A DNA stretch of 64,000 nucleotides from Actinomycetota bacterium (GCA_018896525.1 JAHIMR010000065.1:8205-72204); one strand, 5' to 3'; positions 8,067-44,617 are shown, numbered from the stretch's first letter. Notes: a model not told the origin generated them from the letters alone. Program-made: numbers and translations.

Positions 8067-8078
8067 GGTGAGCAGCCC

Positions 8079-8921
8079 CTATATGGTAATTACCTTGCGC
8101 CGTAGCGAGTGACAGTTAACGGAGAGCGCCACCGGCAGCGTGGCCATGTGGCACGGGGCCTCGAGTATCCTCGCTCCGATGCAGGTGACGGTGCCGCCGA
8201 GCGCGCCCGGCCCAATGCCCATCCGGTTTACCGCCTCGACCAACTCCTCCTCGTGGCCCGATACCACCGGGTCGGGGTTCTTCTCGTCCAGGGGAGTGAG
8301 CAGTGCCCTCTTCGCCAGTTTCGGGGCCACGTCAAAGCTCCCGCCTATGCCTACCCCCAGCACCAGGGGCGGGCAGGCCCCGGCCCCTTTTTCCTCTACC
8401 GCCTCGAGAATAAACTCAAGTACTCCACGCCAGCCGGCCCCGGGAGGCAGCATCACCATGCCCGATGCCATCTCGCATCCCCCTCCCTTGGCCAGTACCC
8501 CCAGCGTGGTTTCGTCACCACCTGAGACGCACACTTCCAGGAGTGGGGGCGTGTTGTCACCGGTATTCTCCCGCCCGCGGGCGGGATCCTCCACCACCGA
8601 GGGGCGGAGCGAACAACGCTTTGTGGCCCTGGCCAGCGCCGCGGACGCCTCGGCCGCGAACTCCCCGTCCAGGGCGGTGCCGGTGCCAAGCGTTAGGTAA
8701 ACCGTGAACACCCCGGTGTCCTGGCACAGCGGAACTCCGAGCCTTCGCGCCTCATCGGCGTTCTCCAGTATCATGTCTATCACGCTACGCCCGGTGGGGG
8801 ATTCCTCGCTGACGCGGTAAAGTGAAAGGGCCTCCACGACATCCGGGGGGAGTTCGGTAGACACCTCCTCGCACAGCGATTCGACCATGTGGCCGAGCCT
8901 GCGGGCGGAAAGCACTCTCAT
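8079..8921 (-). CDS. fumA: class I fumarate hydratase / tartrate dehydratase alpha subunit (Fe-S hydro-lyase N-terminal domain)
   Basis: 280 aa with catalytic-domain similarity (CQDTGVFTVYL, GGG...GIGGSFD). Confidence 0.65.
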   Translation of the reverse strand: MRVLSARRLGHMVESLCEEVSTELPPDVVEALSLYRVSEESPTGRSVIDMILENADEARRLGVPLCQDTGVFTVYLTLGTGTALDGEFAAEASAALARATKRCSLRPSVVEDPARGRENTGDNTPPLLEVCVSGGDETTLGVLAKGGGCEMASGMVMLPPGAGWRGVLEFILEAVEEKGAGACPPLVLGVGIGGSFDVAPKLAKRALLTPLDEKNPDPVVSGHEEELVEAVNRMGIGPGALGGTVTCIGARILEAPCHMATLPVALSVNCHSLRRKVITI

Positions 8922-26249: not shown

Positions 26250-26811
26250 TCACCGCCGCCATCGCTTTGTTTGCCCTGTTCCTCGCCCCGCGTTTTCCGT
26301 AGATCCTTTCGCACATGGAGGTCACAACGTCAATGAAGTCGGCCCATATGTCTGCCATCTCCTCAGTATCATCAGCAACCATGATACGCCTGCCCTGTGA
26401 CATCATTGCGGCTTCTAGAAACTCGAATCCGAACCTGGTGAGCCTGTCCTTGTGCTCGACGAGGATCGTGCCGACAGCCGGGTCTCCCAATAGCTCCAGG
26501 AGCTTCCTTCGGTGACCGTTTAAGCCTGAGCCGATCTCCTCGATCACCACCTTCACCCGCAGACCGCTGGCGGCGGCATAATCCTTGAGCCTTGAGACCT
26601 GGCGCCCCATGTCCTCCTTCTGGTCGTGAGATGATACGCGGGCATAGATAGTAACGCTATTATCCTTGCTGTGTACGGTGGTGTCTTCATAGACAAGTAT
26701 CGTGCCGGTAGCCAACTGCTCCGCTCTCACCGGAAGCGTGCCGTCGTGATACCAGCGAAGAGCGGTCCTGTAGGATATCCCGTTCTTAATCGCCCATGCC
26801 GATAATTTCAT
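26230..26811 (-). CDS. tnpA: IS607-family serine recombinase TnpA (MerR-like HTH plus resolvase catalytic domain)
   Basis: 193 aa. N-terminal HTH (SYRTALRWYHDG) and a catalytic Ser context (IYARVSSHDQKED) typical of IS607 TnpA. Confidence 0.8.
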   Translation of the reverse strand: MKLSAWAIKNGISYRTALRWYHDGTLPVRAEQLATGTILVYEDTTVHSKDNSVTIYARVSSHDQKEDMGRQVSRLKDYAAASGLRVKVVIEEIGSGLNGHRRKLLELLGDPAVGTILVEHKDRLTRFGFEFLEAAMMSQGRRIMVADDTEEMADIWADFIDVVTSMCERIYGKRGARNRANKAMAAVSDPEDQ

Positions 26812-26904: not shown

Positions 26905-26995
26905 CGGTTGGCAAGAAAAGACCGCCACCAAGTGGGGTCAGCGCCTTATAGCGGTGGCCGGCATTAAACGTTATGGCGAGAAGACCCCTCCCTTC
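26905..26995. repeat. family-3-like motif copy (CCACCAAGTGGGGTCAGCGCC ... GTTATGGCGAGAAGACCCC)
   Basis: Matches motifs of the 23.05-23.35 kb array. Overlaps the 3' end of the brxA-like gene. Confidence 0.5.
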
Positions 26996-27771
26996 CCAGC
27001 TATTTGGCTTTCTTCGCGCAGCATCACCAAATCGTCATCCAATCCGTGCCGCAGGAGGTCCAAACGAGGCGAGAGGGATACCAAATGCTCCGCGGAGACA
27101 TGCGCCAGACGAAACGGGAAGATGCTCGGGCTGTCGAGCAGGTCCTTGATGGCGGCGGAACCGTTCATGCGGGCGTGCAGAGATGCCTCGATAAGCCATG
27201 TGATGAGTTTTGGGTCTTGTATGGAGAGGGCGACTCCCTGATTATAGACACCCTTGTCAGATGTTTCGTCCAAAACGCCCCAGTCAACGAAGCTGCGCAG
27301 CACATAGCGGACTCGACGAGAAACCGTTTCCCGTTCTCCATATTGCTCCCGCAAGCGGCGCTGTACTTGGCCGGCTGCGGCCGTTCCTTGGAGTCTGAGC
27401 AGTCGTCCCACATGGGCTGCTACAGCGCCCCAGAATGGATAAACCGCCATTGCTATGCCCCAGTGGACCGCGATATGGTCCTCGCGCGGCAGGCTTGAAA
27501 GAAGCTTCAGGCCATCGCCCTGAAGGGAATGCAGCTCGTAAGGTGGCCGGACCCAGATTTTCATCAGGATAGTGATCGTTTTATCCAACGAACCACGTAT
27601 CTTGGTGTTGTCGGATCGAAACGAGCCTTGGACTTCTCCTTGCAGGGCAGCCTTCACAGCAGGCGCCTCGTTTCCTGCCATGACGAGGTATGCGGTTCGT
27701 TCCAGCCACTTGAGCCGAACAAGGCGGTCAAGACCAATCTGACCGTATCGCCGATTTGCCGGTGAAATCAT
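26971..27771 (-). CDS. brxA: BrxA-like protein (last gene of the BREX operon), tentative
   Basis: 266 aa. Called by position (terminal gene of a type 3 BREX order) and 4-nt coupling to pglZ. No motif was verified. Confidence 0.4.
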   Translation of the reverse strand: MISPANRRYGQIGLDRLVRLKWLERTAYLVMAGNEAPAVKAALQGEVQGSFRSDNTKIRGSLDKTITILMKIWVRPPYELHSLQGDGLKLLSSLPREDHIAVHWGIAMAVYPFWGAVAAHVGRLLRLQGTAAAGQVQRRLREQYGERETVSRRVRYVLRSFVDWGVLDETSDKGVYNQGVALSIQDPKLITWLIEASLHARMNGSAAIKDLLDSPSIFPFRLAHVSAEHLVSLSPRLDLLRHGLDDDLVMLREESQIAGKGGVFSP

Positions 27772-29807
27772 GTGTCCATCCCTGCCTGCGCCGCGCGCGT
27801 CGCGGCAGGCAGGCTTTCGATCTGAACAAGAGGGACGACGAGCTCTTCCAGGGAAATACCACCGTGGCAGACAAGGCGTTCGGTTTCACGAACAAACGCC
27901 AAGCGGTCTGGAGCGAGCAAGGGCAGGTAGTCTTCCGGCAGACCAACCGGCGGCCATTCCAGGGCGCCCGGGAACCGCTCCTTGACTTGACCACGCAGGA
28001 GGGAATCCGGGTAAATCCGAACGCGCTCGCCGCGCAGGTCCGCAACCGCGCCTTCAGCTGGCCGACCACATCCAACTGCCGCAACATTCCCATGGTCCGA
28101 AGTCAGGTAAACACGGAACTCGTTGTCCAGAAGCATATCGATGAGATTCGCCATGAACGGCTGCCCGGCCCACTGTCGAACCTGGTTGTGCATCCCCGCA
28201 GCGCCAAGTTCCATGCCGTGCATGATCTTGTCCACCTTGTCGACGACCAGGCCGGCTACGCGTGTCTTGGGGCGTGTAACCAGCTCCTCTACGCTATCCA
28301 GGGTGCCGTCACCCAATCCCTTGGCGTATGCGACTTCTTGTTGCGTCAGACCCTGGTCCGCCCAGAACTGCGTCCACAGCGCGGGCTCCTTGTCCGTGGT
28401 ATGGATACTGTCTGGGAAGTAGATGGGCGGCCTTCCGGCAAAAGCGGCCTGACGTGAAACGGATGTGATGGTGGGTATCCATGCGAAGACCGCGCTTTCG
28501 CGGAAACGGTATCTTGGGCGTTGCTTGATAAGCGCCTTGCGTATGACGATCCACTGATCCAGCGAGAGTCCGTCCACCAGGACGAACGCTGCTTTATTCT
28601 CATTGGCATCGCCGATGTATCGGGCGAGGAAACGCGGGATATGATGGAGCATGACCGGCGGAGCCGGCGGCAGATTGATCAGCCCCGCGTAGCGCTTCTC
28701 CAGCCAAGCCACAAGCGCGGTGTCGACTTGGGTTTGCAGCATCCCTATCTTCTGGCGGGCCGGTTCGGGCAGCACCGCGTCCGATTCCAGGACAAGGGCC
28801 AGAAGTTCAGCCCAGGTCTTGGCGAAATGGAACCAGTCGTCGTGCCGCGTGTCCTCTTCCGGGATGGCGGACGATATGGTGTCGAGCAGGCCATCTACAC
28901 GACGCGTTCGATCCGCCTGCTCATCGGTACGTATTCCAATGGCGAGCCAGGTCTTTGACAGCGACTCGGCCTGGTCATGGGGAACGGTTTGAAGCAACCC
29001 TTCGAGGAAAAGGTTGTCGATGTAAACACGGATATCGTCGTGGTTAAAAGGCAGGTCCAGGGGGCCGGGATATTCAAGACCGTAAGCTTCCTTGCTCTCG
29101 CAAACACCTGCGTCCTCTTGCTTCGCCGACCGGTCGAGAAAAACGGGCCAGCGTTCTTGGAGAAAGGTGAAAAACGCTTCCCGGTCCGGGATAATGGTAT
29201 CAAGCGGCCAGTCTTCAAAGCCATCGTTCTGGCGGAGGACCTGGACAAAGCGTTCGTCCAGAATCGCCGGGATGCGCTGTTCGCGGTAATGGCGGCGCAC
29301 CAGCACGCGGAGAAGATCGGACGGCTCTCTTATGAGCTCCGGCGCGATCTCGAAGACATGCCGCAGGACGAATTCCTTGGTAGCGTTATCGCCCAGGACG
29401 CCGGGCGCGTGCCGTTTCTGGGCCTCGTAGAGCTCATCAAGGTCCCCGCGGTCCAGGGCGGTCACCACCGGATAGCTCAGGTTAGGAAACATCTCCCCAA
29501 GGTTGAAGGATAGCCGGCGACCGGCTTGGAGTAGATCGTATGGCAAGGAACCGAGGTCGCTGGCTCCTGAGCGCAGCACAACCACCAGGTCCGTCTGTTC
29601 ACCCCGGTCCCAGCGGGAACGGAATTTGGACTCATAGGCATAACGGAAGGCAACGTGATCCTCGAACGGAATCAGTTCGAAGCCTCGCTCGCGTATGCCC
29701 TCGAGCACACCTTCCTCCAGGAGAAGCCCATCGGGGTCGGCAACCAGGGTTAATCGGGCCACCTTTGGGGTGAATTCCCTGAGAATCTGATCTCGCCAGC
29801 TTCTCAT
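27768..29807 (-). CDS. pglZ: BREX PglZ (alkaline-phosphatase superfamily)
   Basis: 679 aa. N-terminal LTLVADPDGLLLEE, VLVDGLSLDQW and TSDHGN motifs are characteristic of PglZ domains. Confidence 0.75.
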   Translation of the reverse strand: MRSWRDQILREFTPKVARLTLVADPDGLLLEEGVLEGIRERGFELIPFEDHVAFRYAYESKFRSRWDRGEQTDLVVVLRSGASDLGSLPYDLLQAGRRLSFNLGEMFPNLSYPVVTALDRGDLDELYEAQKRHAPGVLGDNATKEFVLRHVFEIAPELIREPSDLLRVLVRRHYREQRIPAILDERFVQVLRQNDGFEDWPLDTIIPDREAFFTFLQERWPVFLDRSAKQEDAGVCESKEAYGLEYPGPLDLPFNHDDIRVYIDNLFLEGLLQTVPHDQAESLSKTWLAIGIRTDEQADRTRRVDGLLDTISSAIPEEDTRHDDWFHFAKTWAELLALVLESDAVLPEPARQKIGMLQTQVDTALVAWLEKRYAGLINLPPAPPVMLHHIPRFLARYIGDANENKAAFVLVDGLSLDQWIVIRKALIKQRPRYRFRESAVFAWIPTITSVSRQAAFAGRPPIYFPDSIHTTDKEPALWTQFWADQGLTQQEVAYAKGLGDGTLDSVEELVTRPKTRVAGLVVDKVDKIMHGMELGAAGMHNQVRQWAGQPFMANLIDMLLDNEFRVYLTSDHGNVAAVGCGRPAEGAVADLRGERVRIYPDSLLRGQVKERFPGALEWPPVGLPEDYLPLLAPDRLAFVRETERLVCHGGISLEELVVPLVQIESLPAATRAAQAGMDT

Positions 29808-30028
29808 GCGCTACCTTCCGCTCGAATCATGAGCAACGGCACCATCTCGGGATAGGCGTGGGCTTTCTGGTCGAACTGCTCCTGGGCAAGGAGGTTAAGG
29901 CGACAATTGCGGACCTTGGGCAGCCAGACCCGGCAGGTCGTCTCGCCCCAAAGCGTCTGGGCTTCGATGACCTGACAAATCTGCCCGTGATCCATGCTGA
30001 AGTACCAGCCGCTGTCCACGTGACTCAC
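29804..30028 (-). CDS. small ORF (74 aa), translationally coupled between the 351-aa gene and pglZ, hypothetical
   Basis: GTGA overlap with the upstream gene stop and ATGA overlap with the pglZ start. It fills the gap exactly. No similarity recognised. Confidence 0.4.
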   Translation of the reverse strand: MSHVDSGWYFSMDHGQICQVIEAQTLWGETTCRVWLPKVRNCRLNLLAQEQFDQKAHAYPEMVPLLMIRAEGSA

Positions 30029-31080
30029 TCCGGTATCGCGAAGTCGTTGTGGACGCCCACCGTAGCCAGCTCTATGCAGCCATTTGGCAATTCCCAGAAG
30101 TGAAGATGGTATTCGTGATCTATGTCGCGTCTCGATGCCTTGGCGTTGTCGGAGGACCGCCTCCGCGGCGGGTCGCTGCCGCCTGGACTGGTTCTCAGGG
30201 GGTGGATCGACCGCAAGCTCTGTTTGTCGATAGCTTCACAGACGGCACGCAGTGCCCTGTCCGGGAACCCAGGATCAGCGTCCCTGCTACATTGCCTGAT
30301 GGCACCCTCGAAATGGTCACCGATGACCATACCACCAATGTTGTCCCAATTCGGCTCCTCATGCCTTTCGATACGGGACTTGTAGAGTCGGATGCGAATC
30401 GCGATCTCTATACCTGCAATATCGGTTGAAGCGGTCAATACCGCAGATTCGTCGATGCAGGTGAGGAGTCCCCTGAAATCATCGCAGGCGAGAACATCAC
30501 CTTCAAAATATTCAGGTGGGATCGGGACGTCCGACAACTGGTCATCCCTTTCGTGCTCGATCTCATGAACAAGGGCTCGAACGCGAATCGTGCGTTCCGG
30601 ACAATGCTTGAGGATAAGGGCGTTCTGTAGGATGTCCCCTTGACAATGCTTCCGGAGGATGGCCAGGAGGAGGATGCAACGAGCCAGATCCGTTTGCAAG
30701 CCATGCCCGGTGCAGAACTGCATCACATCGGGACTAGTAGAGAGGTCCTCGGACAAAGTGTCACGGACGCGGTAGTAGGTTTCGAACGACGGCGTGTGCT
30801 GAAGCAGTCTATTGATTACTGCCGCCACTGTGTTGATGTCATACTCTTGGATACCGTGGTGTGAGAAGAGTAGGCGCAGGTGTTCTCGGACCGGAAATAG
30901 CTCATCGGTAGACAGAGCCTCGGAGGCATACTCGCTCATACACAGCGCGATCCACGGCTCGTCGAGCAATTGGGCCCAGTCGAGAATCCGCTCCACGTAG
31001 CCATGAACGTCCTCGGCTGAACCGTGAGCCTGCGGAACGGCAAGCACTCCGGCATCAATGGTGACAGTGGCGCTGCTCAT
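30025..31080 (-). CDS. hypothetical protein (351 aa), partner of the upstream ABC ATPase
   Basis: No recognisable motifs. The acidic HEIEHERDD segment was noted. Sits 2 nt downstream of the ATPase stop, in the slot where BrxHII would be. Confidence 0.5.
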   Translation of the reverse strand: MSSATVTIDAGVLAVPQAHGSAEDVHGYVERILDWAQLLDEPWIALCMSEYASEALSTDELFPVREHLRLLFSHHGIQEYDINTVAAVINRLLQHTPSFETYYRVRDTLSEDLSTSPDVMQFCTGHGLQTDLARCILLLAILRKHCQGDILQNALILKHCPERTIRVRALVHEIEHERDDQLSDVPIPPEYFEGDVLACDDFRGLLTCIDESAVLTASTDIAGIEIAIRIRLYKSRIERHEEPNWDNIGGMVIGDHFEGAIRQCSRDADPGFPDRALRAVCEAIDKQSLRSIHPLRTSPGGSDPPRRRSSDNAKASRRDIDHEYHLHFWELPNGCIELATVGVHNDFAIPE

Positions 31081-31082
31081 CG

Positions 31083-32990
31083 CTACTTACCCCTCTGCTT
31101 CTTCCGCTTCGCGGCGGCGGCTCTAAGGATAGCCTCTGCCTCACGCTGGTTCTGATCGAAGAAGCCATCTGGCCAATCGAGGATGGCACCGAACTCGTTT
31201 ACGCCGACTTTGCGGAAGACCGAACCGTCATCATCCCGCTCCACGAAGTAGAGACGGACCGCCTCAAGCCAGGGATTGGTCGTTGCAGCCGCGGCAGTTC
31301 GGAAGCGAATGCGATTCACAAGGTATTCGCTGTGTGTTTCGAGAACACATTGCTTCCCAAGCTGTGTCATGGAGAGAAAGAAATCTGCAAGGAGTGTCTG
31401 CACTCTGGGGTGCAGGTGTATTTCAGGCTGCTCGAAGATCAGCGTCGTATCAGGGTCAGCAAGCAAGCTGGAGACAAGGATAGGAAGAACCTGACTCACT
31501 CCAACCCCAACGTGAGTCAGGTCGTGGTACCGCGTCCCGCCCGTAATGCTGACGACGAGTTCGTGGCCAAACTTGCCTTTGTCCTGGCTTTGGATACTTT
31601 CGGCGACGCCAAGGTACTGGAGCCAATCAACGACTGCCGCTTCAAGCGTCCTCGTTGTTGGTGTTGGCACCACCTCATCACCGATAAATGCGGAAGTCGG
31701 GATATAACGGATGGGGCGATTCTTGTGCAGTTCAAGAACAGCTGCGGTGTGCTCTCCCTTTAGGCCGACATCCGAAGGATCGACTGTCGGGGAAAGCGGA
31801 TAGAGGGGCTTGGGCTCATCCCGAAGCGGGCCAAGGTAACGTACCGAGTTGGTAAAGAATTGATCGGTATACCAGCATGCTTCGGTTATACTGTTTGGAG
31901 ATGGGTAGAGAATGACATCGAGGTCCTCTCCCTGTTCTTTACACATAGCGTCATTAACCAAGCTCTCGAGGTTCGGATATTCCGCAATCTGGCGATGGAA
32001 CTCCATCCTGGCACGAGACGATATTCGCCCGAACGCATCGAGGAATGTTTCCATGAAAACGGCAGACTCGTCGAATAGAGGCCGCTGGCTGAAGGCATTC
32101 TCAAGCGATTCTCGAAGGTCAGACCCTTCCATTTTTCTGGCTATATCCAAAATGCAATCAATAACAGGTTTTGGCACGATGCCTTCGCGGCCAACAAAGA
32201 GACGACGCGGCATTCTGCGCGGGCTATCTCCGATTAGGGTGCTGACGATGAACCGAGTGGTTTCCGGCACTAGATCGACGCCGAGTGCAATCCGCTCGGG
32301 AAGGAAATGCCGTAGGATACAGCCGATAGGCTTGGCCGATACCATATCTTCGTGAATCTCCGCCATCGATGCATCATCGAGATCAACCTCATACTGCATA
32401 CTGGCGCGTAGGATGTCGTCGCCGGCTTCGGTGGCTTCAGTCCATCTATGCTTTGATGTCGTATCAGTTGTCGTTGCGCGACGAATCGAAATGGAGTATG
32501 GGCGGTCACTGCCCTCGGCGTCGCGAGTTATAGAAGATACAACCGACGAGAACAAACGAGGTTGGAGCTGAGTAATTTCTCTCTGTGTGCCCGAATCATC
32601 AGTGTCAAAGCTGATTTCACACGACACGGATGATATGGCATACCTTTGCCTGCCGTAGAATGTGGGAGCACGGCGGGATGCCGCAACTCGCATGCCTGCC
32701 ACCTTGGGATCATAGACAGGCTTGCATGTCCAGCCTATGACAATCTGGCTCGCATCGCTTTCAGCACTCTTGAGATCGTCAAACTGCCCCAGTTTGGCGA
32801 GTGCCCCGTTGAGAACCACAGAGCGCGAACTGACCTTGTTTGCCAAAGTCTGAGCGACGAGCAAGATGGATTGCAGCAACGTGCTCTTACCGCTGCTGTT
32901 CGCACCTGCGAATATTGTCAGCGGTGCGAATTCCAACTCGGTCTCATTGCGGACCGATTTGAAGTTGAACACCTTCCACTTGGTGATCAT
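31083..32990 (-). CDS. ABC-type ATPase of the AAA_15/AAA_21 (OLD / PARIS-AriA / Septu-PtuA-like) family with DUF3696-like C-terminus
   Basis: 635 aa. Walker A FAGANSSGKSTLLQ, C-terminal LIFEQPEIHLHPRVQ (Walker B plus H-loop signature of this family) and WPDGFFDQ tail. Confidence 0.7.
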   Translation of the reverse strand: MITKWKVFNFKSVRNETELEFAPLTIFAGANSSGKSTLLQSILLVAQTLANKVSSRSVVLNGALAKLGQFDDLKSAESDASQIVIGWTCKPVYDPKVAGMRVAASRRAPTFYGRQRYAISSVSCEISFDTDDSGTQREITQLQPRLFSSVVSSITRDAEGSDRPYSISIRRATTTDTTSKHRWTEATEAGDDILRASMQYEVDLDDASMAEIHEDMVSAKPIGCILRHFLPERIALGVDLVPETTRFIVSTLIGDSPRRMPRRLFVGREGIVPKPVIDCILDIARKMEGSDLRESLENAFSQRPLFDESAVFMETFLDAFGRISSRARMEFHRQIAEYPNLESLVNDAMCKEQGEDLDVILYPSPNSITEACWYTDQFFTNSVRYLGPLRDEPKPLYPLSPTVDPSDVGLKGEHTAAVLELHKNRPIRYIPTSAFIGDEVVPTPTTRTLEAAVVDWLQYLGVAESIQSQDKGKFGHELVVSITGGTRYHDLTHVGVGVSQVLPILVSSLLADPDTTLIFEQPEIHLHPRVQTLLADFFLSMTQLGKQCVLETHSEYLVNRIRFRTAAAATTNPWLEAVRLYFVERDDDGSVFRKVGVNEFGAILDWPDGFFDQNQREAEAILRAAAAKRKKQRGK

Positions 32991-35818
32991 ACCTCACCTC
33001 CTGTTCTTGTCAGCGCCTGGTCGTACCACATGAGGAGTTTCGGGTCTTCCTGGAGGACGTTCTCGGGTATCTTGCGGGCCACGGCGATGATCGTGGCGTA
33101 TTCGTGCTCCTGCCAGGCCTTCTTGAATCCGGCGCGAACGGCCTCCACGCGGAACACCTTCAGGCGTTTCTGTTTGGACTGGCGATACTCCTCGAACTCG
33201 CGCATAAGAGCCCGCTCGCGCAGTTTCTCCAAGTCGCCTGCCTTGTTCGGGTCAGGCACGTACCAGCGGTCCTTGGCCTTGGCCTTGAGCGTCGGGTCAT
33301 CTTTTACCAGGTTGCGCAGTTCCTTGAAGTTCGAGGAGAGGTAGCTGTGGATCTGGCTCGGCACCTCGCCCTTACCGTCGCAACGTAGGAAGTTTTGCTC
33401 CAGCAGTTCATCAAGCTCGAGCATCTTTTCGTTCTTTTGCCAGCCACCAATCTCCTGCATGAATTGCGGCTTCAGATCACCTGCCGTTTGCGGTTTCTTC
33501 GTTAGTTGTTGTTTGAGCCACTGGATGGCCGAGGCTTCGTCGGAAACTAGAAGCTGAAGCTGGAGTACCTCTTTGACCGTCATTCGCTTCTTGTCGTACT
33601 CGGCTGCCTGATCTGGCAGGAAATACATACCGTCGCGTGGAGTAAAGCGTTGTTCCAGTCCCGCATAGAATTCAGCAGCAGATAGAGGCACCGTGGTTCC
33701 TCGTTGGACGTGGAAAGCAACCATGCGATCAAAGAGCAGGTGACTCTGCCGCTCCGGTATCATTTCTGCCATTCCGTTTGTGGATACAAATACTGGAAGT
33801 TGCTTGAGATGCGTACGGACAACATCCCAAACACCCTCTTCGGTACCGGCTGTAAGTTTGAAGCGCTCCGCCAACCCGCCATTGGGCTTATAAGCAGAGA
33901 TAACCAAGTCTTTGTTCACAGCGTTTGCGTTGAGCTGCTTCTTCGTCAGCATTCCTTTGTCGAGAACGCGGACATCAGCAATGATAAACCCCGCTTGACC
34001 CAAAGCTTCTTGTATGGCCGTCCAGACGGAATTCTTTGAATTATGAAACTCGATTGTCACCCAGCGACCGGGTTTCAGAAGCCGGTACACCTCCTTGAGA
34101 CAGGAGGTCATCATCAGCGTATAAACCGCCAGGTCCTTGTCCTGCGTCCCGCTCACTACGGCATCTTGCGCTGCGTTTGTGAACACTCGAAGCCATGCTT
34201 CCCACAGAAAATTCAGTTCAGCATAAGGTAGGTTGTCTCCAAATGGCGGATCGATGAAAACATAGTCAACAGAGTTGTCTGGACCGAGTATATATGCCAA
34301 TGACTGAGTAGTAACCATCGTGCCGCTTTCAGAAGATGGAACAGCCTTCCTAAAGCGCTTGAGTTTTCCGGTCAGGACGTATGTTGGACTCGGCTCACTT
34401 ACTATCGAACCTAAATACAACGTGCCGCTGAGAGACCGGTTAACCTGGGAGTATGCGTTCTTTAGGAATCTATTGCGACGAGTGAAGCTCACGACGATGC
34501 CTTGAAGTGTGAACCGCCAGAGACGTTTCGCTTCCTCTGAAGGCAGATCGTCGGCGCTATGCCAAAGGATGGAGAAAGCAACAAGCTGGCGTACAAGATG
34601 AAAATCGTGAACCCGACTGATGCCCTCATGGTAGCCTCGATAGAGATCGCCCCATTCTTCGCCTTCGGGCGTGAACATCATTAACTCGGTGGGGTAACCA
34701 ATCTGCTCCAGCATCTGCTCGATCTTCGCCAGAACTTGAATGTCCTTTTCGTTCGGTAGCTTTTTCTTCTTGGCCCCTCGGTGGCGGTAGCAGATTTCGA
34801 CCGGTTTGAGAATCTGTTTACTACGGGTGGCCCCAACAGCCTTGTCATAGTACTTCGTTGTGCAACGGATAAGATCTCGTTTTGAAACCTTGGCAGAGCA
34901 GTGCAGGCAAGTTGGATTCTCAACGATCTTACCGGATGAAGCATCATATGCCAGTGCCCAAAATTCTAACTCGCCTGAGCAGTGAGGACAACTGAATACC
35001 TCTGACCAAACTGTAAAATCGATCTCGCAGACATCCCCTGACTTGGGGTCCGTGGTCTGGTACATCCATCCGTATTCGCGATTGAACTTCTTGAGCAACT
35101 CTGCAGCGAGTTTGGGGAATGATTCAGGGTTCCTTGTCAGGTTATATCCGGCCGCGATAAGCGTCGCTGCAGGAGAGAGATCATTCAGAATGGCCTTTCG
35201 GCAACCTTTACTTCCTATGTTCTGGCCGTTCTCATCGAAAAGCTGATCATCGGCTCTGGGTGTGTACCCAAGCGCCGCGAGAGTGCTTGGATCATCGCAT
35301 AGTTGTGCGGCTACACCGGTCATCCCCGTCCCACAGAATCCATCAAAAACCACATCCCCTGGCTCGGTATAATACAGGATATACCGCATGATGGCCTTGT
35401 GCGGAACCTTAGTGTGGTAGGAGTGGGCGTTGTAAATTGGGTCGTTCTTTCCTTCGCTGACATCCGCGGCAAATGGTCCCCGCCGGTAATCGTCTGTCTT
35501 CTGGTCATACGGTTTCCCGTACTGCTTGACAAAATCCTCGATGAACGGGTTCGGGCAGGCGGTGTAGTACGGAGGATCGGACAGGGCCAGGATGTCCTCG
35601 TCCTCGCCAATCGGGAATCCCTCAATCTTGCGGAACTCCGGGTCCTTGAGATCCTCGCGTAGCTTCTCCAGGAAATACTCTCGGCGTTTCTCGTCGTTCT
35701 CGAAGGTCAAGCCCAGGCATTCAACGGGCCCCTGCGTCTTGGCAGCGGGTTCCAGGTCGAAAAGACTATGCTCGTGGCGTTCCTTTACCATCAGCCTCTC
35801 CTCAATCCCCGCCAACAA
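32987..35818 (-). CDS. pglXI: BREX type 3-like adenine-specific DNA methyltransferase PglXI (N6_N4_Mtase, PF01555-type)
   Basis: 943 aa. SDPPYY, then VVFDGFCGTGMTGVAA (SAM-binding motif I), then a second FIDPPFGDNLPY motif. Coupled by 4 nt to the downstream ATPase. Confidence 0.7.
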   Translation of the reverse strand: MLAGIEERLMVKERHEHSLFDLEPAAKTQGPVECLGLTFENDEKRREYFLEKLREDLKDPEFRKIEGFPIGEDEDILALSDPPYYTACPNPFIEDFVKQYGKPYDQKTDDYRRGPFAADVSEGKNDPIYNAHSYHTKVPHKAIMRYILYYTEPGDVVFDGFCGTGMTGVAAQLCDDPSTLAALGYTPRADDQLFDENGQNIGSKGCRKAILNDLSPAATLIAAGYNLTRNPESFPKLAAELLKKFNREYGWMYQTTDPKSGDVCEIDFTVWSEVFSCPHCSGELEFWALAYDASSGKIVENPTCLHCSAKVSKRDLIRCTTKYYDKAVGATRSKQILKPVEICYRHRGAKKKKLPNEKDIQVLAKIEQMLEQIGYPTELMMFTPEGEEWGDLYRGYHEGISRVHDFHLVRQLVAFSILWHSADDLPSEEAKRLWRFTLQGIVVSFTRRNRFLKNAYSQVNRSLSGTLYLGSIVSEPSPTYVLTGKLKRFRKAVPSSESGTMVTTQSLAYILGPDNSVDYVFIDPPFGDNLPYAELNFLWEAWLRVFTNAAQDAVVSGTQDKDLAVYTLMMTSCLKEVYRLLKPGRWVTIEFHNSKNSVWTAIQEALGQAGFIIADVRVLDKGMLTKKQLNANAVNKDLVISAYKPNGGLAERFKLTAGTEEGVWDVVRTHLKQLPVFVSTNGMAEMIPERQSHLLFDRMVAFHVQRGTTVPLSAAEFYAGLEQRFTPRDGMYFLPDQAAEYDKKRMTVKEVLQLQLLVSDEASAIQWLKQQLTKKPQTAGDLKPQFMQEIGGWQKNEKMLELDELLEQNFLRCDGKGEVPSQIHSYLSSNFKELRNLVKDDPTLKAKAKDRWYVPDPNKAGDLEKLRERALMREFEEYRQSKQKRLKVFRVEAVRAGFKKAWQEHEYATIIAVARKIPENVLQEDPKLLMWYDQALTRTGGEV

Positions 35819-38096: not shown

Positions 38097-38184
38097 GTGT
38101 GGATCTTCCCGCCTTGTTCACTGAACAAATTCCGGTACCTTTTTCAGGCTTGTCCATTGCGCGAGTCTCATCTGCCGCCGGCAC

Positions 38185-38250
38185 GACGCTCTTCACTTGG
38201 TCACCCAAGAACTGACCAAATGGTCTCAAGTTGGTCACTAACTTGGTCAC
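38185..38250. promoter_or_regulatory. direct repeats of TTGGTCAC (3 copies, plus the related TGACCAA) upstream of the RloC-like gene: candidate operator/internal promoter
   Basis: TTGGTCACCCAAGAACTGACCAAATGGTCTCAAGTTGGTCACTAACTTGGTCAC in the 150-bp gap between the AlbA_2 regulator stop and the RloC-like start. Confidence 0.35.
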
Positions 38251-39812
38251 TCGCCCTCTCTTTCGTTTGTTGACAGGAATCCCCGCCCCTTTTCCGTGAG
38301 CCGGTATTTTTGCAGGCGGCTGTTCGGTTTCTCCGGAATTGTGTATTCTATGTATCCGGCCTTCATCGCAGGGTGTAGGTAGTTTTGGCGAAATGTCGGC
38401 CGATGCTTGATATCAAGAGCTTCGCGGAGTTCTCCGGAAGACATTTCGCTCTCTTGGAGTAAGATCAAGAGTCGCTCAAATTGGGAGGCCGACTGGGTCG
38501 GTGACTGGGTCGGTGACTGGGTCGGTGACTCTGGCCGAGTAGCCCCGAACATGGCCTTCATGAGGTCCGAGGCCATGTCCACTTCCTTGTCCAACTCAGG
38601 GATAAAGAGCTCGAACGCCTTCCAGGCACGGTCATTCTTGTATGTTGGGGCTGGATGCCCCACCGCCTGCCATTCCTCGCGCATCATTCGCATGCCCGTA
38701 CCGGCCTGTTCGCACATGGCGATACGCCGCATTGCGGCAGTGATGCCGGGATTGCGAACTTCCTTTTCGCCCGGTTCCATAAGCCGAGAGTCGTCGCCGA
38801 ACACATCGCCGGGATTCCAGAACTGAATGCCATCGCGAAAGAATTTGATGACCGCTTTCCGGGAATGATCGCCGTAATCCTGGTGAATCAGCAGGTTCAT
38901 GGCAGCCTCTCGGAATACGCGGAATCCGGGCGGATCGTCACGGCGCCCGAGGGTTACCGGGTCGATATCCCTGAAGGGCTTGGGCATGAAGAACTTGTAT
39001 TTTGCGACCAGTTGTTCCCAAGCATGGATGATGTTCTCTTCACAGACAATCCGGTCGATCCAGCGAGTCCGCGGCATTTCTTCATTCGTCGCATAGCCGA
39101 GAAACTGAACATCCAGCGTCGGCCTGGGAATCAGTTGATGAACCGCGAGTGAAGACCCGAACAGCATGATAGCTCCGTGGGTCGGAATCCGTCGTTTTCC
39201 GTCCTTGATAAGATATCCCCACCGGTAGAGGAAACTCTCGTCGGGTTCTTCCGAATCGGTACCGCTGTTTGCCGAATGGAATCGGTCACGAAACCAGCGA
39301 AGGCTGCTCGGTTCGAACGCTTCTTCGAGCAGTACCCGCTCGAAGGGCTGGCTGTCCCACCGGTCGGCTGTGGCGTCGCGCAGCATACGCTCGATGTCCT
39401 GCATCTGGGCTCGGTAGTCTCCACTACCCTTGCGGAGGAACGTACGCCGAATATCGCCGTCCAGATACACCGGTTTGCGGGTACGGGGATTTTCGGCGAT
39501 GTGGAAGGCCAGTACAATCTTGTCGTCTATGTGGAATCGCTGCTCGTTAACCTGTACATCGTGGTTGACTTTCTGGTCGGCATGAAGCAACGAAAGAAAA
39601 TCGCCTTGCACCTTGTCAGGTTTATCGACGCCAATAACTTTGAACTCTTCACCGTGCTGACCAATACCAAACACCAAGCGACCGCCGTGGGTATTGGCGA
39701 ACGCGGAAATGGTCTCGAACGCTGACCTGGGAACTGCCGTACGAGCTTCCTTGAACTCGACATCGTTCCATTCCCCCGCTTCCAGCAGTTCTTTTAATTC
39801 CGCGATTTTCAT
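38247..39812 (-). CDS. AlbA_2/Schlafen-like DNA-binding domain plus HATPase_c_4 protein (RecG-C-terminal-like putative transcriptional regulator) with C-terminal winged HTH
   Basis: 521 aa. N-terminal ELKELLEAGEWNDVEFKEA...ISAFANTHGGRLVFGI is the PF04326 signature. SPTQSPTQSPTQS linker and C-terminal wHTH. Confidence 0.7.
   Translation of the reverse strand: MKIAELKELLEAGEWNDVEFKEARTAVPRSAFETISAFANTHGGRLVFGIGQHGEEFKVIGVDKPDKVQGDFLSLLHADQKVNHDVQVNEQRFHIDDKIVLAFHIAENPRTRKPVYLDGDIRRTFLRKGSGDYRAQMQDIERMLRDATADRWDSQPFERVLLEEAFEPSSLRWFRDRFHSANSGTDSEEPDESFLYRWGYLIKDGKRRIPTHGAIMLFGSSLAVHQLIPRPTLDVQFLGYATNEEMPRTRWIDRIVCEENIIHAWEQLVAKYKFFMPKPFRDIDPVTLGRRDDPPGFRVFREAAMNLLIHQDYGDHSRKAVIKFFRDGIQFWNPGDVFGDDSRLMEPGEKEVRNPGITAAMRRIAMCEQAGTGMRMMREEWQAVGHPAPTYKNDRAWKAFELFIPELDKEVDMASDLMKAMFGATRPESPTQSPTQSPTQSASQFERLLILLQESEMSSGELREALDIKHRPTFRQNYLHPAMKAGYIEYTIPEKPNSRLQKYRLTEKGRGFLSTNEREGE
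38478..38530. repeat. 12-bp tandem repeat (GGTCGGTGACTG x3.5) encoding the SPTQ linker
   Basis: Direct reading of the sequence. Confidence 0.8.
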
Positions 39813-39849
39813 TGCCGCAATCCGTGTCTATCCGTGGTCATCCGTGGTT

Positions 39850-42800
39850 CTACTCCAAGACTATTCTAACCTTGCCGGGCTCCTTGCCCCTGGTGAGTTC
39901 GTCCAGGTACTCCTCGAACCGCTTCTTCATCTCGGCAGGTGTGACCGGTGAACCGCCGGAGAGCAGCGCCGCGCGCAGGTCCGTGATCTTGACCGGCACC
40001 TTCTGGAGTCCGGAAAGCACTTCCCCCATGGCATAGATGAAATACTGGTCAAGTTCGTCCGGCAGGGCACGCTTCTCGATGAAGCCGTCTACGAGCTTCT
40101 TGTAGTCGGGCTTGAGTAGGTCGAGGTTGACACGGGTGTTCGGGTCCTCCAGATTGGTCAGCAGCGTCTGGGTCCAGTTCTCCACCTGCTTATCCAGCTC
40201 CCCGTCCAGGCCGTCCAGGACCGTGCCCGCTGGTGCCTCCGGCGGCTCCGCGCCAGGCTTGAAATTGCAGTGAGGGCAGACGGCCGAGGCGTCCATTTCC
40301 TGCTCGGTGAGCGCGAAGCAACTCGTCAAGGCAGCGAGACGGTTCTGGAAATCGGTCAAGTGCTGACGGGGCATCAATTCGATAGTGGAGAGCTTCCGCA
40401 GCACCTGGAGTCGCTCATCGCCCATGAGGGCAGTCTTGTGTTTGTCTTCGTTCACGCCCAGCCGAGCTTTCGCGTGCAACGCCAGGTAGACCCTCACGTA
40501 GGCCCTCTTGAGATCGATCAATTTGCGTTGGGTCTGCTGGCGAAAGGTGGCCTCGCCACGTTTGTCCGGATCGCCGAACTGGGCGAGAACCTCGTCACGC
40601 GCCTTTTTCATCTTACCCACCCACTCGTGTTCCGTGGGTAGGACCGCCTCGGCCGTCGAGAGGAACGACGCGGTGGAACCGAGATCGGCCGCCAGTCCCT
40701 GGAGGGATTCGATCTCGGCCAGGGAATTGAGCCCGTCGCGGTGACCGGTCACCTCCCGGGCATCGTAACGGAAATTCTTGAGCTTGCCGGGCGAGGTATA
40801 GGCTTGGAGCGATTCCAGAAAGGTCTTGGTTTCATCGAGCCGGGAGCGAAGCTTCCGCGCCTCTTCCTCGGCCAGCAGGTTCCGGCCCCAGAAGAGCAGA
40901 CCGTCTTGCAGGTTCTGTTGCAGGAGAACAAGTTCCTCCACCGATTCTGATATGGCCTTCTGCAACTGCTGCACCGGCTCGTCCTTGCCCTGGGTTACCA
41001 AATGAGCCATGCCTGGTGTGAGCCCGAGCAGTTCGAACAGAGCCTTCAGGGCCGGTAAATTCCAGCCCTTGGGTTGCTCGATATGCTTAAACTGCATCAG
41101 TTCATCCACGCCGGTTCCGGCCAACTGCGGCAGGCCGTTAGCGTCGAATTTCTTGCCCGGGATGGCGAGAACCAGATCGCCGGTGTAGACCAACGTGGCC
41201 AGGACGACCGCCACCCATTCCGGCTCCAGCCGGTACCGGTCCTTGTCCATGTATTCTACGCCCTTGTCGTCCTGGATCAGCTCGGAGCGATTGACCACCT
41301 GACCATGGCCCTTCTTCTTGAGCTGTCCGAGGATGTACTTGGCATATTTCGAGTTGTAGGGATCGAGCCGTTCACCGTCGAGTAACTCCAACGCGTCCAG
41401 CACCGCCGTGGCCTGTTTGGTGCGGTTCTGACCGGCGATGGCGCGCAGGGCGTCCTGCGCGGCCTGTCCCCGGTTGGTCCCGGTGATGAGGACCGAGAAG
41501 AAAGGATGCTCGGGTGCCTGGTCCTGGAAATGCGCTCCCAGGCAAATGCCGGCGATGGTGTTCACCAGGTCGCGGAAGTTGATTCGCTCGCGGGAGCCGA
41601 TTCCGGACAGCTCACGTATCGACATACCCTTGGACCACTCGGTGAGCGACTTGGCGCGTCCCTGGTAGGTCACCTCGAAGGCTTCCGTCATGTGCTTTTG
41701 CAGCCACTGCACCAAGTCCCGGAGAGAATGGGATGACTTGGATTCGTAGGTGGCCTTGGCGTGCCCCGACGAGGTGGAAGCCAGGTCCAGGGCCGCGGCG
41801 TAATCCCTGAGCGCTGTGCGAAACTCGTCGTCTGCGTTGGTGAGCCGTAGAAACAGTTCATCGGGCTTCTTCTCGTCTTTGAAGTGTGGCGCATCAAAGG
41901 GCTGAATGAAGTAGAGGTAGAAATCGCGCGGCGGAACGGCGGTGGAACGCTCGTTGGGCGCGCCGAAGAAGAGATAACCCTGGCGTGCGGCCTTCCGCTC
42001 CAACCACTCCAACTCGTGCTGCCAGATCTTGTAGCCGGTGACGTAGGTCTGGTCCGTGCACTCCATGACCCGTTTCAGTGCCTCGTAGTAGTAGCGGTCA
42101 AGTTGAGAAGAGTCGAGGCTTTCAGCGCGCTTCTCGATCAGCGCGTCGAAGTCGTCGGTCTTCTTCAGGTCCAGGTAGAATTGCCGGTTGTCAGGGTTGA
42201 AGGAGATGAACTGGCCACTGACCGTCCTGTGGATCTCACGCAGGACTGTTTCCACCTGGGAGAGCAGGTCGTCAGCCGGATCGCCGCCCAGTTCCTCGAT
42301 ACCCGGTTGATACAGGCAGAGCCCGTCACGGAGCTCCTCGGCCGTCGCTCCAAGGGTGGTGTAGATGTCCCCCGTCGTAAGCCGCTGGACCGACAGGGCA
42401 TGGATGAGCCGCAGCGCCATGGTCTTGTAGGTTGGACGCGTGAAGGCCTGCTGGATGCGCGACTCCAGCACCTGGCTGCAGTCGATCACCGCCTTGATAT
42501 CCGGCACGGCACGGAAGGACGGGTTCTCTCGGAGATTGGTCCAGTAGGTATCGTAGGCGATCAGCCCGGGCCAGTTGTCTGGGACATCCTGGTCAAGCAA
42601 TTTCTTCATGGCCAGAGACAGGGTCTTGAGCACTTCTCGCTTTTCCACAGCGGTGACCCGCTCGAAGGTGTCGATGTAGTCGGGGTGCACTGGGAAAAGA
42701 CGGACGAACTCGTCCATGCGCTCGTGCATGTGGCCGTAGAACCTACCGAAGGGTGTGAGGTACTCGCGTATCTTGATCTGCTGTTCGCCGGTCTTCTTGA

Positions 42801-43578
42801 GCAATCGCTCGGCAACCACGAACTTGACATCCTTACGGGCGATGAGAATCTGCTCGAAGCGGTCCTTTACCCGGCGAACGCTGTCTGCCACAAAGGAAAA
42901 CCGGGGGCTGTCGAAGATAGCCTCCTGAACGCCAGCTATGAAGCGGAAGCGCAGGTCCTTGCAAACCTCGCCGATCTCGCGGAGGAAGTTCAGGTCGAGA
43001 ATGAGTTCCTGGTCCTTGCGGGTGCGCAAGTAATCAAGCAGTTCATCCACCACCAAGAGCAGGCCGTGTTCGGGAAACTCCTGGTGGAAGGCGGTCATCA
43101 TCTCCTCGAACGAGCGCTTGTTGCCGGACACCTCGGAGGCTGATGGGAAGCCATAGCTCACGCCCATCGCGGCCAAGTGCTCCTCCAGTTCGGCTATGAG
43201 GATGTCTCGAAGGGACATGGTCGTGGCCCCGATCTCAGTGCGCACAACCTTGAATCGGCCGGCTATTATCTCCGCGGCATCCGCCACATCCTGGTTGTTG
43301 AGGCAAGGGGCAAACTCTGGATTCTCGGCAAGCCCGGAGAGCACCGACATGAGGTGCGACTTGCCGGTGCCGTAGTTGCCGACCACCAGCAGGCCTTTGT
43401 TGTTGGTGGGATGCTCGAACTGCAACTGGGGTATGACAAGACCAACCAGCTTTTCCGCCATCTCATCGGAAATGACATAGGTTTCGATAAGCCGCCGGGC
43501 CTCAGTCGCTTCGTCGGCGTCTCGCAGTTGGATCACGGACTCGATAGGTTCAAACTGGATCAGGTCACCGTATTTCAT
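39850..43578 (-). CDS. brxC: BREX ATPase BrxC/PglY
   Basis: 1242 aa. N-terminus [24 protein letters not shown]...[20 protein letters not shown] is the hallmark BrxC start with Walker A. Confidence 0.85.
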
Positions 43579-43630
43579 CGCGTCTGCTCCTCCGCTCCCT
43601 TGTATCGGAATCTGCTGGAATCTGTTATCT

Positions 43631-44110
43631 TCACTTCGTCACCTCCGGGCTTGCCACCAGAAAATCACGCACCGGGTATCGTCTGTACTCCGGGTGAGCC
43701 GGGGCGGCATAGGTCAAAGAACCGTCAACGATGGAGCCGTTCCATGCGGCAACCACAGTCTTATTACGCGAGAGTCCCTGGAGCAGCCGAAGCGGGTCCT
43801 GCTTCAGACCAACGTCGAACATGACTTCTATGTTGTCGAGCAGGATCATCTCGTCATCGCCATTATCGACGATCTCTCGAAGAAGACGCGGCAGCCGCAA
43901 GGCTCGCTGGCGCTCGGTCAAATCAAGCATTCGGCGGGATATCTCGAGATTGACATTCACCAGGGGCGCACCCATGCGATCCCGTACATCCAAGAGAGCA
44001 GTGGTTTTTCCCGCGCCCGCCAGCGCTATGACCAGTATCAGCCGGTGATAGAGTTCGGCGGTCTGCTTGACCTTTCGTACAATCTGATCAGCAAGGGGCT
44101 CCGCCATCAC
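43631..44110 (-). CDS. brxF: BREX type 3 small P-loop protein BrxF
   Basis: 159 aa with Walker [15 protein letters not shown], immediately upstream of brxC as in type 3 BREX. Confidence 0.6.
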
Positions 44111-44129
44111 TGTTCTCCCTTGTCCCTAC

Positions 44130-44351
44130 TCATTTGCGTTCATTTTGCTTGCGATCATCCTTGGCCTCGTCGGCTCCGCCCGTTTTAACCCACTCGTCCA
44201 CCTCTTCCTTGCGGAACTTCCAGAGGCGGCCGATCTTGTGCCCAGGCATATTTCTTTCACTTATCCACCTGTAAACGGTATCCCGCTTGACGCCGAGATA
44301 AGCCGCGATCTCATCCACGGAGAGCCATCGATCTTCCATCATTATCTCCAC
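44130..44351 (-). CDS. excisionase/AlpA-like MerR-type HTH DNA-binding protein (HTH_17)
   Basis: 73 aa: WLSVDEIAAYLGVKRDTVYRWISERNMPGHKIGRLWKFRKEEVDEWV is a classic Xis-family HTH. First gene of the island operon. Confidence 0.7.
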   Translation of the reverse strand: MEIMMEDRWLSVDEIAAYLGVKRDTVYRWISERNMPGHKIGRLWKFRKEEVDEWVKTGGADEAKDDRKQNERK

Positions 44352-44617
44352 TCATTTCGAGATTTGTCGACTGTCTAATAACGGCGGCATGTTGTCAGTT
44401 AGTAGATCGGTTTGAATGATTCGGCGCTTGGCGCTTTTATACAGACAAACCAAGTTAAACAAGAATAAAATATATCAGGCGAAGGCCTATTGTCAAACAC
44501 TTTTTCCGAGTGTATGGCTGTTTAATCTAATGTGACCGAGTTAGTCTAACCAGGCCAGCGGATCTTGGCGGTGCCCCGATACGGGGCCCGGGGCGTCCTT
44601 TGATAAGATGATGTTTA
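44352..44617. promoter_or_regulatory. AT-rich divergent intergenic region (likely promoters for the BREX operon and the GH35 operon)
   Basis: GC drops sharply relative to flanks. Candidate sigma70-like hexamers TTGAAT-18-TTTATA on the plus strand. Confidence 0.35.

Follow-up and report, generated by a model that had tools for sequence, protein, structure and literature searches.

A type 3 bacteriophage exclusion (BREX) operon of eleven open reading frames (ORFs), all in one direction, occupies the minus strand at positions 26971-44351 of a 64,000-nucleotide (nt) stretch of DNA from an Actinomycetota bacterium (GCA_018896525.1, JAHIMR010000065.1:8205-72204), hereafter the window. We mainly focus on the fate of its helicase gene, brxHII, of which a 74-codon relic is left, and on the additional genes nested in the operon. 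The canonical order of type 3 BREX, for which Goldfarb et al. are reportedly the source, is brxF, brxC, pglXI, brxHII, pglZ, brxA.

Gene content of the locus

Five of the six core genes of type 3 BREX are present at full length and in canonical order, brxHII being the exception. When the operon proteins were scanned with Pfam, PADLOC and NCBIfam profiles, a helix-turn-helix (HTH) protein, BrxF, BrxC, PglXI, PglZ and BrxA were all matched end to end, and the ten ORFs besides the relic proved full length against profile models. The methyltransferase is PglXI of the PF01555 type, not PglX of the PF13659 type, and its DPPY and FxGxG motifs are invariant in an alignment with relatives. A reading made earlier from the DNA without database searches (the sequence-only reading) had named each of these elements and called the whole a type 3-like BREX in canonical order, and the scans bear it out: BrxF, BrxC, PglXI, PglZ and BrxA are recognized by type-3-matching models, with BrxC, PglZ and PglXI assigned to BREX families. 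Of the five non-canonical genes that it listed, four stand as such, namely those for an AlbA_2 protein, an AAA_13 ATPase, a DUF3696 ATPase and a protein of 351 amino acids (aa), while the fifth, a 74-aa ORF, is the brxHII relic. The DUF3696 ATPase and 351-aa genes lie side by side between pglXI and the relic and are treated below as a pair.

ORF spacing likewise agrees with the description of the extra genes as nested and tightly packed. Overlaps of 4 nt link PglXI to the DUF3696 ATPase, the 351-aa to the 74-aa ORF, the latter to PglZ (ATGA) and PglZ to BrxA, and a gap of 2 nt separates the ATPase from the 351-aa gene. A 17-nt overlap also reported, between the AAA_13 gene and pglXI, hinges on a TTG start at 35818; the ATG at 35791, preceded by GGAGAGG and lying 10 nt past the AAA_13 stop, is the likelier pglXI start.

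Table 1. Features of the type 3 BREX operon, listed from its 5′ end (positions in the window)
Feature	Position	Strand	Description and support
Candidate operon promoter	44469..44496	-	TTGACA, 16-nt spacer, TG-TATATT; ~120 nt 5′ of the HTH gene
HTH_17/excisionase-family, MAD1-like protein	44130..44351	-	Pfam HTH_17 6e-18
BrxF P-loop protein	43631..44110	-	PADLOC 3.8e-78, full length; NCBIfam BREX_3_BrxF 191.6 bits (cutoff 50)
BrxC/PglY ATPase, DUF6079 type	39850..43578	-	Pfam DUF6079 1885 bits, residues 1-1242; PADLOC BrxC E = 0
AlbA_2 (Schlafen-like), HATPase_c_4 and Fic-like C-terminal winged-helix protein	38247..39812	-	Pfam domains
AAA_13 ABC-type ATPase, 764 aa, PADLOC family PDC-S06	35802..38096	-	Pfam AAA_13 4.5e-41; PDC-S06 6.4e-85
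PglXI methyltransferase, PF01555 type	32987..35791	-	PADLOC PglXI E = 0, 1334 bits; PF01555 matches
Cassette gene A: NsnB-like ABC ATPase (AAA_15/21) with C-terminal DUF3696, 635 aa	31083..32990	-	Pfam AAA_15, AAA_21, DUF3696
Cassette gene B: 351-aa protein	30025..31080	-	Predicted PIN-like N-domain, aa 1-~200; predicted RelE/YafQ/ParE-fold C-domain, aa ~270-351
brxHII relic, 74 aa	29804..30028	-	~37 N-terminal codons joined in frame to the last ~38 codons
Deletion junction	29919..29932	-	CGGGTCTGGCTGCC, merged copy of two imperfect 14-nt direct repeats
PglZ, type 3	27768..29807	-	NCBIfam BREX_PglZ_3 884.6 bits (cutoff 250); PADLOC PglZ E = 0
BrxA, type 3 form	26971..27771	-	PADLOC BrxA 3.1e-105, near full length

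A deletion relic in the place of brxHII

Two sets of related loci were assembled for comparison, cited below by L numbers: 80 genomic loci encoding PglXI relatives, whose ORFs were compared with the window proteins, and 80 metagenome loci recovered with the 351-aa protein as query. In the first set, the 74-aa product gives two separate BLASTP matches to every ~940-aa protein encoded just 5′ of PglZ: its aa 4-37 align with residues 1-38 at 73-84% identity, and its aa 33-74 with the last ~45 residues at 45-61%. The ~940-aa proteins are intact BrxHIIs, with scores of 1390-1650 bits against the PADLOC model PDLC02500 and with SNF2, ResIII and Helicase_C domains, and the same model matches the relic at about aa 5-40 (E = 3.5e-10). 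In the alignment, the N-terminal …CRVWLP of the relic runs straight into the C-terminal (LP)xVRNxRLNLLAQE…YPEMVPLLxIRVEG. Searching the whole window by tblastn with two BrxHII references recovered only two short BrxHII-like pieces, within 29813-30028, and the Pfam, PADLOC and NCBIfam scans found no helicase domain in any operon protein, the relic itself being without a helicase motif. The absence of a working BrxHII, as claimed by the sequence-only reading, is thus upheld; BrxHII sequence, which that reading allowed might be hidden in an unassigned protein, does occur as the 74-aa ORF, and no operon protein contains a helicase core.

The origin of the relic can be followed by comparison with L170, in whose intact brxHII two imperfect 14-nt direct repeats sit 2,601 nt apart. 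When the reverse complement of window positions 29780-30060 was aligned with L170 by blastn, a 5′ block of 88% identity ended at CGGGTCTGGCTGCC and a 3′ block of 75% identity began at CGGATCGGCCTGCC, 2,601 nt downstream. The deleted stretch of 2,601 nt, or 867 codons, is in frame and covers the SNF2/DEAD helicase core. Downstream of the junction there is a second deletion of 18 nt, and the C-terminal part of the relic is less conserved. The relic keeps a start that overlaps the stop of the upstream gene and a stop that overlaps the pglZ start. As read from this alignment, illegitimate recombination between the imperfect 14-nt direct repeats is shown to have removed the core of brxHII.

L170 also carries the nearest homologue of the 351-aa protein (83% identity), and there the next gene encodes an intact BrxHII of 938 aa; BrxHII is likewise intact in L172, which holds a 74%-identical homologue. 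Because the relic lies in brxHII's own place and the closest relative of the cassette retains the intact gene, the deletion is a recent one. On these comparisons the helicase is truly absent from the window, and its loss is a recent mutation with a visible scar. An identical 351-aa gene occurs on 17 contigs from NCBI, ENA, JGI and Logan assemblies, including an Actinobacteria metagenome-assembled genome (MAG; GCA_018898375.1), and is followed by a stub of 71-74 codons on all six contigs inspected. An assembly artefact was rejected, given this recurrence in independent assemblies.

BrxHII loss across related loci

The sequence-only reading had further suggested that the embedded modules replace BrxHII. 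BrxHII status was cross-tabulated over all loci that contain PglZ and, as an anchor, either PglXI or the 351-aa gene, about 93 in number. Where the pair is present, BrxHII is intact in 31 of 45 loci and absent or fragmentary in 14 (21 and 12, respectively, of the 33 left after removal of near-identical loci); where the pair is missing, it is intact in 27 of 48 and absent or fragmentary in 21. Across these ~93 loci, presence of the pair shows no association with BrxHII loss (Fisher p = 0.28), and BrxHII is missing in ~40% of the sampled type 3 loci with or without the pair. On this cross-tabulation, and given the differing deletion junctions described below, replacement of BrxHII by the modules is not supported.

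In L027, L052, L076 and L081, which have no BrxHII, PglXI abuts PglZ and the slot is empty. Other BrxHII-less loci hold diverse genes there: a DinG-like PDC-S28 protein in L007, an IetS protease in L045, an Mrr nuclease with a STAND NTPase in L019 and L036, a PARIS-like AAA_15 protein with DUF4435 in L033, and an AAA_21 protein with DUF4276 in L034. The PglXI-PglZ slot of BrxHII-less loci is a rich source of candidate systems. Extra slot genes are equally frequent in loci that keep BrxHII.

Relics of several kinds were encountered. Written as the lengths of the N- and C-terminal parts, L088/L168 retain N47 + C68 and L118 retains N81 + C12, both in frame; L028 has a truncated N-terminal piece of ~115 residues; L134, L064, L117 and L158 have out-of-frame or degraded pieces; and no brxHII sequence is left in L009, L040 and L160/L161. 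The differing junctions indicate that BrxHII has been lost many times independently. Older BrxHII-less loci without a relic occur in several phyla, with their other genes intact and compacted.

Slot contents also change between close relatives. The PglXI proteins of L007 and L008 are 85-87% identical to that of the window and their slot contents are different, which points to exchange of cassettes on closely related BREX backbones. In L125, a 41-codon 5′ fragment of brxHII, 86% identical in nucleotides to the locus's own brxHII, is duplicated (7780-8080; 11030-11400): the fragment lies 5′ of an ATPase and 351-aa pair, the full brxHII follows, and the fragment ends in …RVWLPN*, at nearly the junction point of the window. 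The position of this end suggests that the highly conserved 5′ end of brxHII may be the arm at which cassettes are exchanged by recombination. Similar extra 5′ fragments precede other cassettes in L012 (14429-14689) and L032 (14622-14906), whereas L083 (14370-14711) has an N-terminal fragment joined to a piece from the middle of a broken brxHII.

The ATPase and 351-aa cassette between pglXI and brxHII

The 635-aa ATPase is matched by the PADLOC models NsnB (4.9e-70), HEC-03B (1.9e-51) and PDC-M55A (7.9e-45), and more weakly by AriA and GajA. Its Walker A motif, GANSSGKS, is normal, and its Walker B motif reads LIFEQPE, with E-Q in place of D-E. The E-Q form (hhhhEQPE.HLHP; window 31400-31440, ATPase residues ~517-530) is common to 84 related loci; the variant suggests that ATP is bound and that its hydrolysis is slow or unusual.

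For the 351-aa protein, there was no Pfam match at E <= 1 and none in PADLOC, NCBIfam or a PDB profile search, so that its earlier description as an unknown holds for family models; structure prediction, by which alone its folds are seen, makes it a PIN-like and RelE-fold protein with a helical linker of ~70 aa between the two domains. The N-terminal half was poor in the first full-length model, with a predicted local distance difference test (pLDDT) score of 65, and was fixed by re-modelling residues 1-205 with 119 sequences. The C-domain has, in the predicted structure, a RelE-like alpha/beta fold with a basic/His active-site cluster. Across members only 22-48% identical, the residues H293, R296, R308, R317, D319, D321, H325, H327, Y328, W329 and H344 of this domain are conserved, among them a His/Arg cluster. 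From these models, the 351-aa protein is predicted to be a toxin effector with an NsnC-like architecture.

The family is large, with 469 close homologues and, in a profile search of 1.8 billion representatives, 1,350 clusters at 50% identity. Throughout the 80 metagenome loci, the 351-aa gene comes directly after a 630-645-aa ATPase of the AAA_15/21 + DUF3696 type, this ATPase follows PglXI wherever the flank suffices, and in most of them the pair is succeeded by intact BrxHII, then PglZ and BrxA. The architecture of the operon recurs in relatives in so far as the pair occupies the same slot, in ~100 loci in all; about two thirds of these have an intact BrxHII, and the AAA_13 gene is found in none. 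In Bradyrhizobium sp. USDA 4520, the pair lies between PglXI and BrxHII and most junctions are 4-nt overlaps. Relatives of the 351-aa protein at 45% identity or more are all inside type 3 BREX, whereas a 22%-identical member belongs to a free-standing pair beside a type I restriction-modification (RM) system and another has non-BREX neighbours. These members led us to reject exclusivity of the pair to BREX, and they indicate that the ATPase-toxin module can exist on its own. The pair is a predicted NsnB/NsnC-like ATPase-toxin module without NsnA.

Genes between brxC and pglXI, upstream region and flanks

Of 94 related loci, 24 likewise have a homologue of the AlbA_2 protein (23-75% identity) between brxC and pglXI; type 3 BREX commonly carries such a protein, as an accessory or a regulator. 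Within its gene, three tandem 12-nt repeats (38482-38529) encode a repeated SPTQ linker at the boundary of the HATPase_c_4 and winged-helix domains, a tract that is possibly length-variable. The adjacent AAA_13 gene is preceded by a 150-nt spacer and has no tblastn match in ~160 related loci, which marks it, as judged by these searches, as a lineage-specific insertion. The earlier label of RloC-like for its 764-aa product was not confirmed, as the NCBIfam and PDB matches name neither RloC nor PrrC; PDB sequence searches with the AAA_13, DUF3696-ATPase and AlbA_2 proteins returned generic Rad50, OLD and Fic matches only.

At the 5′ end, the HTH protein scores 87 bits against NCBIfam antiphage_MADS1 (cutoff 80) and 1.7e-14 against PADLOC mad1, and 26 of 76 related loci have a homologue immediately 5′ of brxF; the protein is likely to be the operon regulator. 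The sigma-70-like site upstream of it agrees with the consensus at 11 of 12 positions, has an extended -10 TG and is the best match in the region; it is a consensus match only, and is put forward as a candidate for the promoter that drives the operon. Terminator-like sites in the region are not commoner than in shuffled sequence.

The island is flanked on one side by an IS607-like resolvase and TnpB, and on the other by a beta-galactosidase gene followed by an rpoA/rpsD cluster. The IS607-like element lies directly 3′ of brxA and consists of a serine resolvase gene (26230-26811) overlapping a TnpB/OrfB_IS605-Cas12f-like gene (24975-26249, minus strand); the sister assembly L001 has the two genes in the same arrangement, with the TnpB ORF left uncalled. 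When the island was scanned for repeats, neither direct nor inverted copies that would mark the ends of an insertion turned up at its flanks, and a scan for tRNA genes found none. The G+C content is 0.51-0.55 over the AAA_13, pglXI and ATPase genes (31000-39000), 0.58-0.60 over brxC and pglZ and ~0.60 in the flanking chromosome, a dip that fits a mosaic origin of the island. PglXI, of which GTDB contains at least 594 loci, is unusually conserved, being 70-92% identical at the aa level across Actinobacteria, Desulfobacterota, Nitrospirota (Ca. Manganitrophus) and Bacillota, and ~53% identical even in Methanosarcina (L051); such conservation across phyla indicates a wide horizontal spread of type 3 BREX. 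A rearranged order occurs in a Dehalococcoidales MAG (L048:6702-9476), where a full BrxHII lies 5′ of PglXI and PglXI abuts PglZ.

Interpretation and rival explanations

The explanation that we favour, to which we assign a probability of about 0.72, is that the locus is a horizontally mobile type 3 BREX whose helicase was recently destroyed and whose two slots, brxC-pglXI and pglXI-brxHII, carry nested cassettes as add-ons and not as an evolved substitute. The replacement proposed by the sequence-only reading would instead set the locus apart as a BREX variant of its own, kept by selection, with the role of BrxHII taken over by embedded ATPase/nuclease modules (the pair, the AAA_13 protein or both). 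Its attraction is that the pair sits at BrxHII's place, joined to pglXI and pglZ by translational coupling, that all remaining BREX genes are intact, that at least 12 non-redundant loci (including L009, L023 of Sporomusa ovata, L040 and L064) have the pair and then PglZ with no BrxHII, and that many other BrxHII-less loci hold some ATPase/nuclease cassette in the slot. The proposal nevertheless fares poorly, and we regard it as unlikely, given that a relic of brxHII survives here and BrxHII is intact in the nearest relative, that two thirds of the pair loci keep BrxHII and its loss is not enriched with the pair, that some BrxHII-less slots are empty, that the pair also stands free outside BREX, and that a RelE-fold RNase with an ABC ATPase is mechanistically unlike a SNF2/DEAD helicase. 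The loss of 867 codons from a core gene, the additional 18-nt deletion with the poorer conservation of the C-terminal part of the relic, and the IS607-like element abutting brxA could also be taken to mean that the entire locus is a decaying, non-functional remnant, in which helicase loss was the first step of pseudogenization and nothing is under selection. This, too, is improbable: the ten other ORFs are full length, the gene junctions are still tightly coupled, the deletion is in frame with the coupling to pglZ kept, and the compact, intact, relic-free loci of several phyla imply that a BrxHII-less state is maintained.

That the relic remains in frame with its start and stop, and that three independent in-frame N + C relics (window, L088/L168 and L118) keep the highly conserved first ~37 residues, might suggest a selected mini-protein, for instance an adaptor preserving the N- and C-terminal contact surfaces of BrxHII. 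The breadth of the junctions (N37+C38, N47+C68, N81+C12), the out-of-frame or truncated relics of L134, L064, L117 and L158 and the lack of any relic at L009, L040 and L160/L161 make this very improbable; moreover, the ends would be retained anyway because they overlap the stop and start signals of the neighbours, and in-frame relics amount to ~3 of 7, close to the one in three expected by chance. Several points weigh against the favoured explanation of a damaged, mosaic type 3 BREX. The presumed effect of BrxHII loss is drawn wholly from analogy with BrxL, the compact intact BrxHII-less loci (L009, L027, L052) could mean that BrxHII is dispensable for defence, and the contact between ATPase and toxin is taken by analogy from Menshen. 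Furthermore, the locus samples are similarity-ranked and partly redundant, with kinship ignored, so that the percentages are rough.

A proposed mechanism

For the damaged BREX that we favour, the following course can be envisaged. The deletion between the 14-nt repeats took out the brxHII core and left the 74-codon in-frame stub. Methylation of host DNA by the genes that are left probably continues, as judged from type 1 BREX, in which loss of the motor protein BrxL leaves methylation and reduces restriction, whereas methylation requires BrxB, BrxC, PglX and PglZ (PMC9122589). If BrxHII is a motor like BrxL, classical BREX exclusion would be lost or weakened, and the nested cassettes, acting alone, would probably supply residual anti-phage activity as a back-up or by abortive infection. 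That BREX operons carry embedded genes is known, and an independent back-up role has been proposed for such genes (bioRxiv 10.1101/2024.01.29.577857), and an independent role has likewise been proposed for BxaP, inserted between PglXI and BrxHII (Nat Commun 2024, PMC10799925).

Within the cassette, an ATPase oligomer would probably hold the toxin, its DUF3696 tail gripping the PIN-like domain, as suggested by the predicted NsnB-NsnC complex and by Septu and PARIS, whose structures and mechanisms are summarized in PMC12065111. In Menshen, the DUF3696 tail of NsnB is predicted by AlphaFold 3 to clamp the inactive-PIN N-domain of NsnC, and the C-domain of NsnC is a toxin that varies, with RelE-like (BECR) folds among its forms (PMC12065111). 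An infection cue would then change the nucleotide state and free or activate the RelE-fold RNase, which would shut down translation and result in abortive infection. The cassettes themselves would be exchanged by recombination at conserved gene ends.

A different arrangement, for the sizeable share of type 3 BREX loci in which the pair is found, would have the pair wired into BREX as its effector arm, with BREX parts sensing infection as NsnA does and triggering the RNase toxin. We consider this rather improbable; if true, redundancy would explain repeated BrxHII loss without decay of the remaining operon, and a BREX subtype would gain a concrete killing mechanism. To our knowledge, no type 3 BREX has been studied experimentally, and BREX has no known nuclease.

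Relation to known systems

The type-3-specific models BREX_3_BrxF and BREX_PglZ_3, the PADLOC PglXI model, the form of BrxA and the DUF6079 type of BrxC all place the operon in type 3 BREX, from which it differs in that brxHII is a 74-codon N + C relic and that four extra genes are nested in two slots. With other BREX loci carrying embedded genes (BxaP, HEC/PDC candidates, and BrxU in type 1 BREX), it shares same-strand nested defence genes; BxaP even occupies the same PglXI-BrxHII slot as the pair, and among the HEC/PDC candidates the AAA_13 gene belongs to PDC-S06 and the 635-aa ATPase matches HEC-03B and PDC-M55A. The present case differs in that the host BREX has also lost its helicase. 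In HEC-03, moreover, the ABC ATPase accompanies a plain VapC-like PIN protein, whereas the partner here combines PIN-like and RelE folds and is not in PADLOC.

The cassette resembles Menshen in that its ATPase is of the NsnB type, ends in a DUF3696 tail and has a degenerate Walker B motif, E-Q here and E-N in NsnB (Nucleic Acids Res 2025, PMC12065111), and in that the next gene encodes a protein whose predicted PIN-like and BECR/RelE folds would give the two-domain layout of NsnC, in the same B-then-C order. Unlike Menshen, the cassette has no NsnA: no operon protein matches DUF262/GmrSD_N, and PglXI precedes the ATPase. The 351-aa protein matches no PADLOC NsnC model, and a large subfamily of the pair is fixed at the pglXI/brxHII junction of type 3 BREX. 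Septu PtuAB, PARIS AriAB and Gabija similarly place an OLD/ABC-type ATPase (AAA_15/21) beside a small nuclease or toxin partner gene; the effector here, however, differs from an HNH or Toprim (DUF4435) nuclease in being a predicted RelE-fold domain fused to a PIN-like one, and sequence-level membership of the cassette in Septu, PARIS or Gabija was not found. From RelE, ParE, YafQ and YoeB toxins, the 351-aa protein differs in its fusion to a 200-aa PIN-like domain through the ~70-aa helical linker, in its ATPase partner and in its low identity (9-15%), with no Pfam toxin model matching it; no small ORF of the antitoxin kind was identified beside its gene.

Significance

Type 3 BREX and embedded defence genes are already known. 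What appears undescribed in the searchable literature is the brxHII relic, together with the absence of BrxHII from ~40% of sampled loci by independent deletions, the PIN-like + RelE-fold family fixed with NsnB-like ATPases at the pglXI/brxHII junction, and the indications that cassettes are exchanged where the conserved 5′ end of brxHII lies. Current ideas are not overturned, and the locus is best seen as a known system, damaged and mosaic.

For annotation tools, it follows that BrxHII should not be required for type 3 calls. The pglXI-brxHII junction emerges as a hotspot of cassette exchange, and the PIN-like + RelE-fold family with its NsnB-like ATPase, in effect a sensor-less Menshen, offers a tractable candidate defence system. 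The BrxHII-less loci, whose five other core genes are intact, form a natural knockout series, which suggests that, like BrxL in type 1, BrxHII of type 3 BREX can be separated from methylation.

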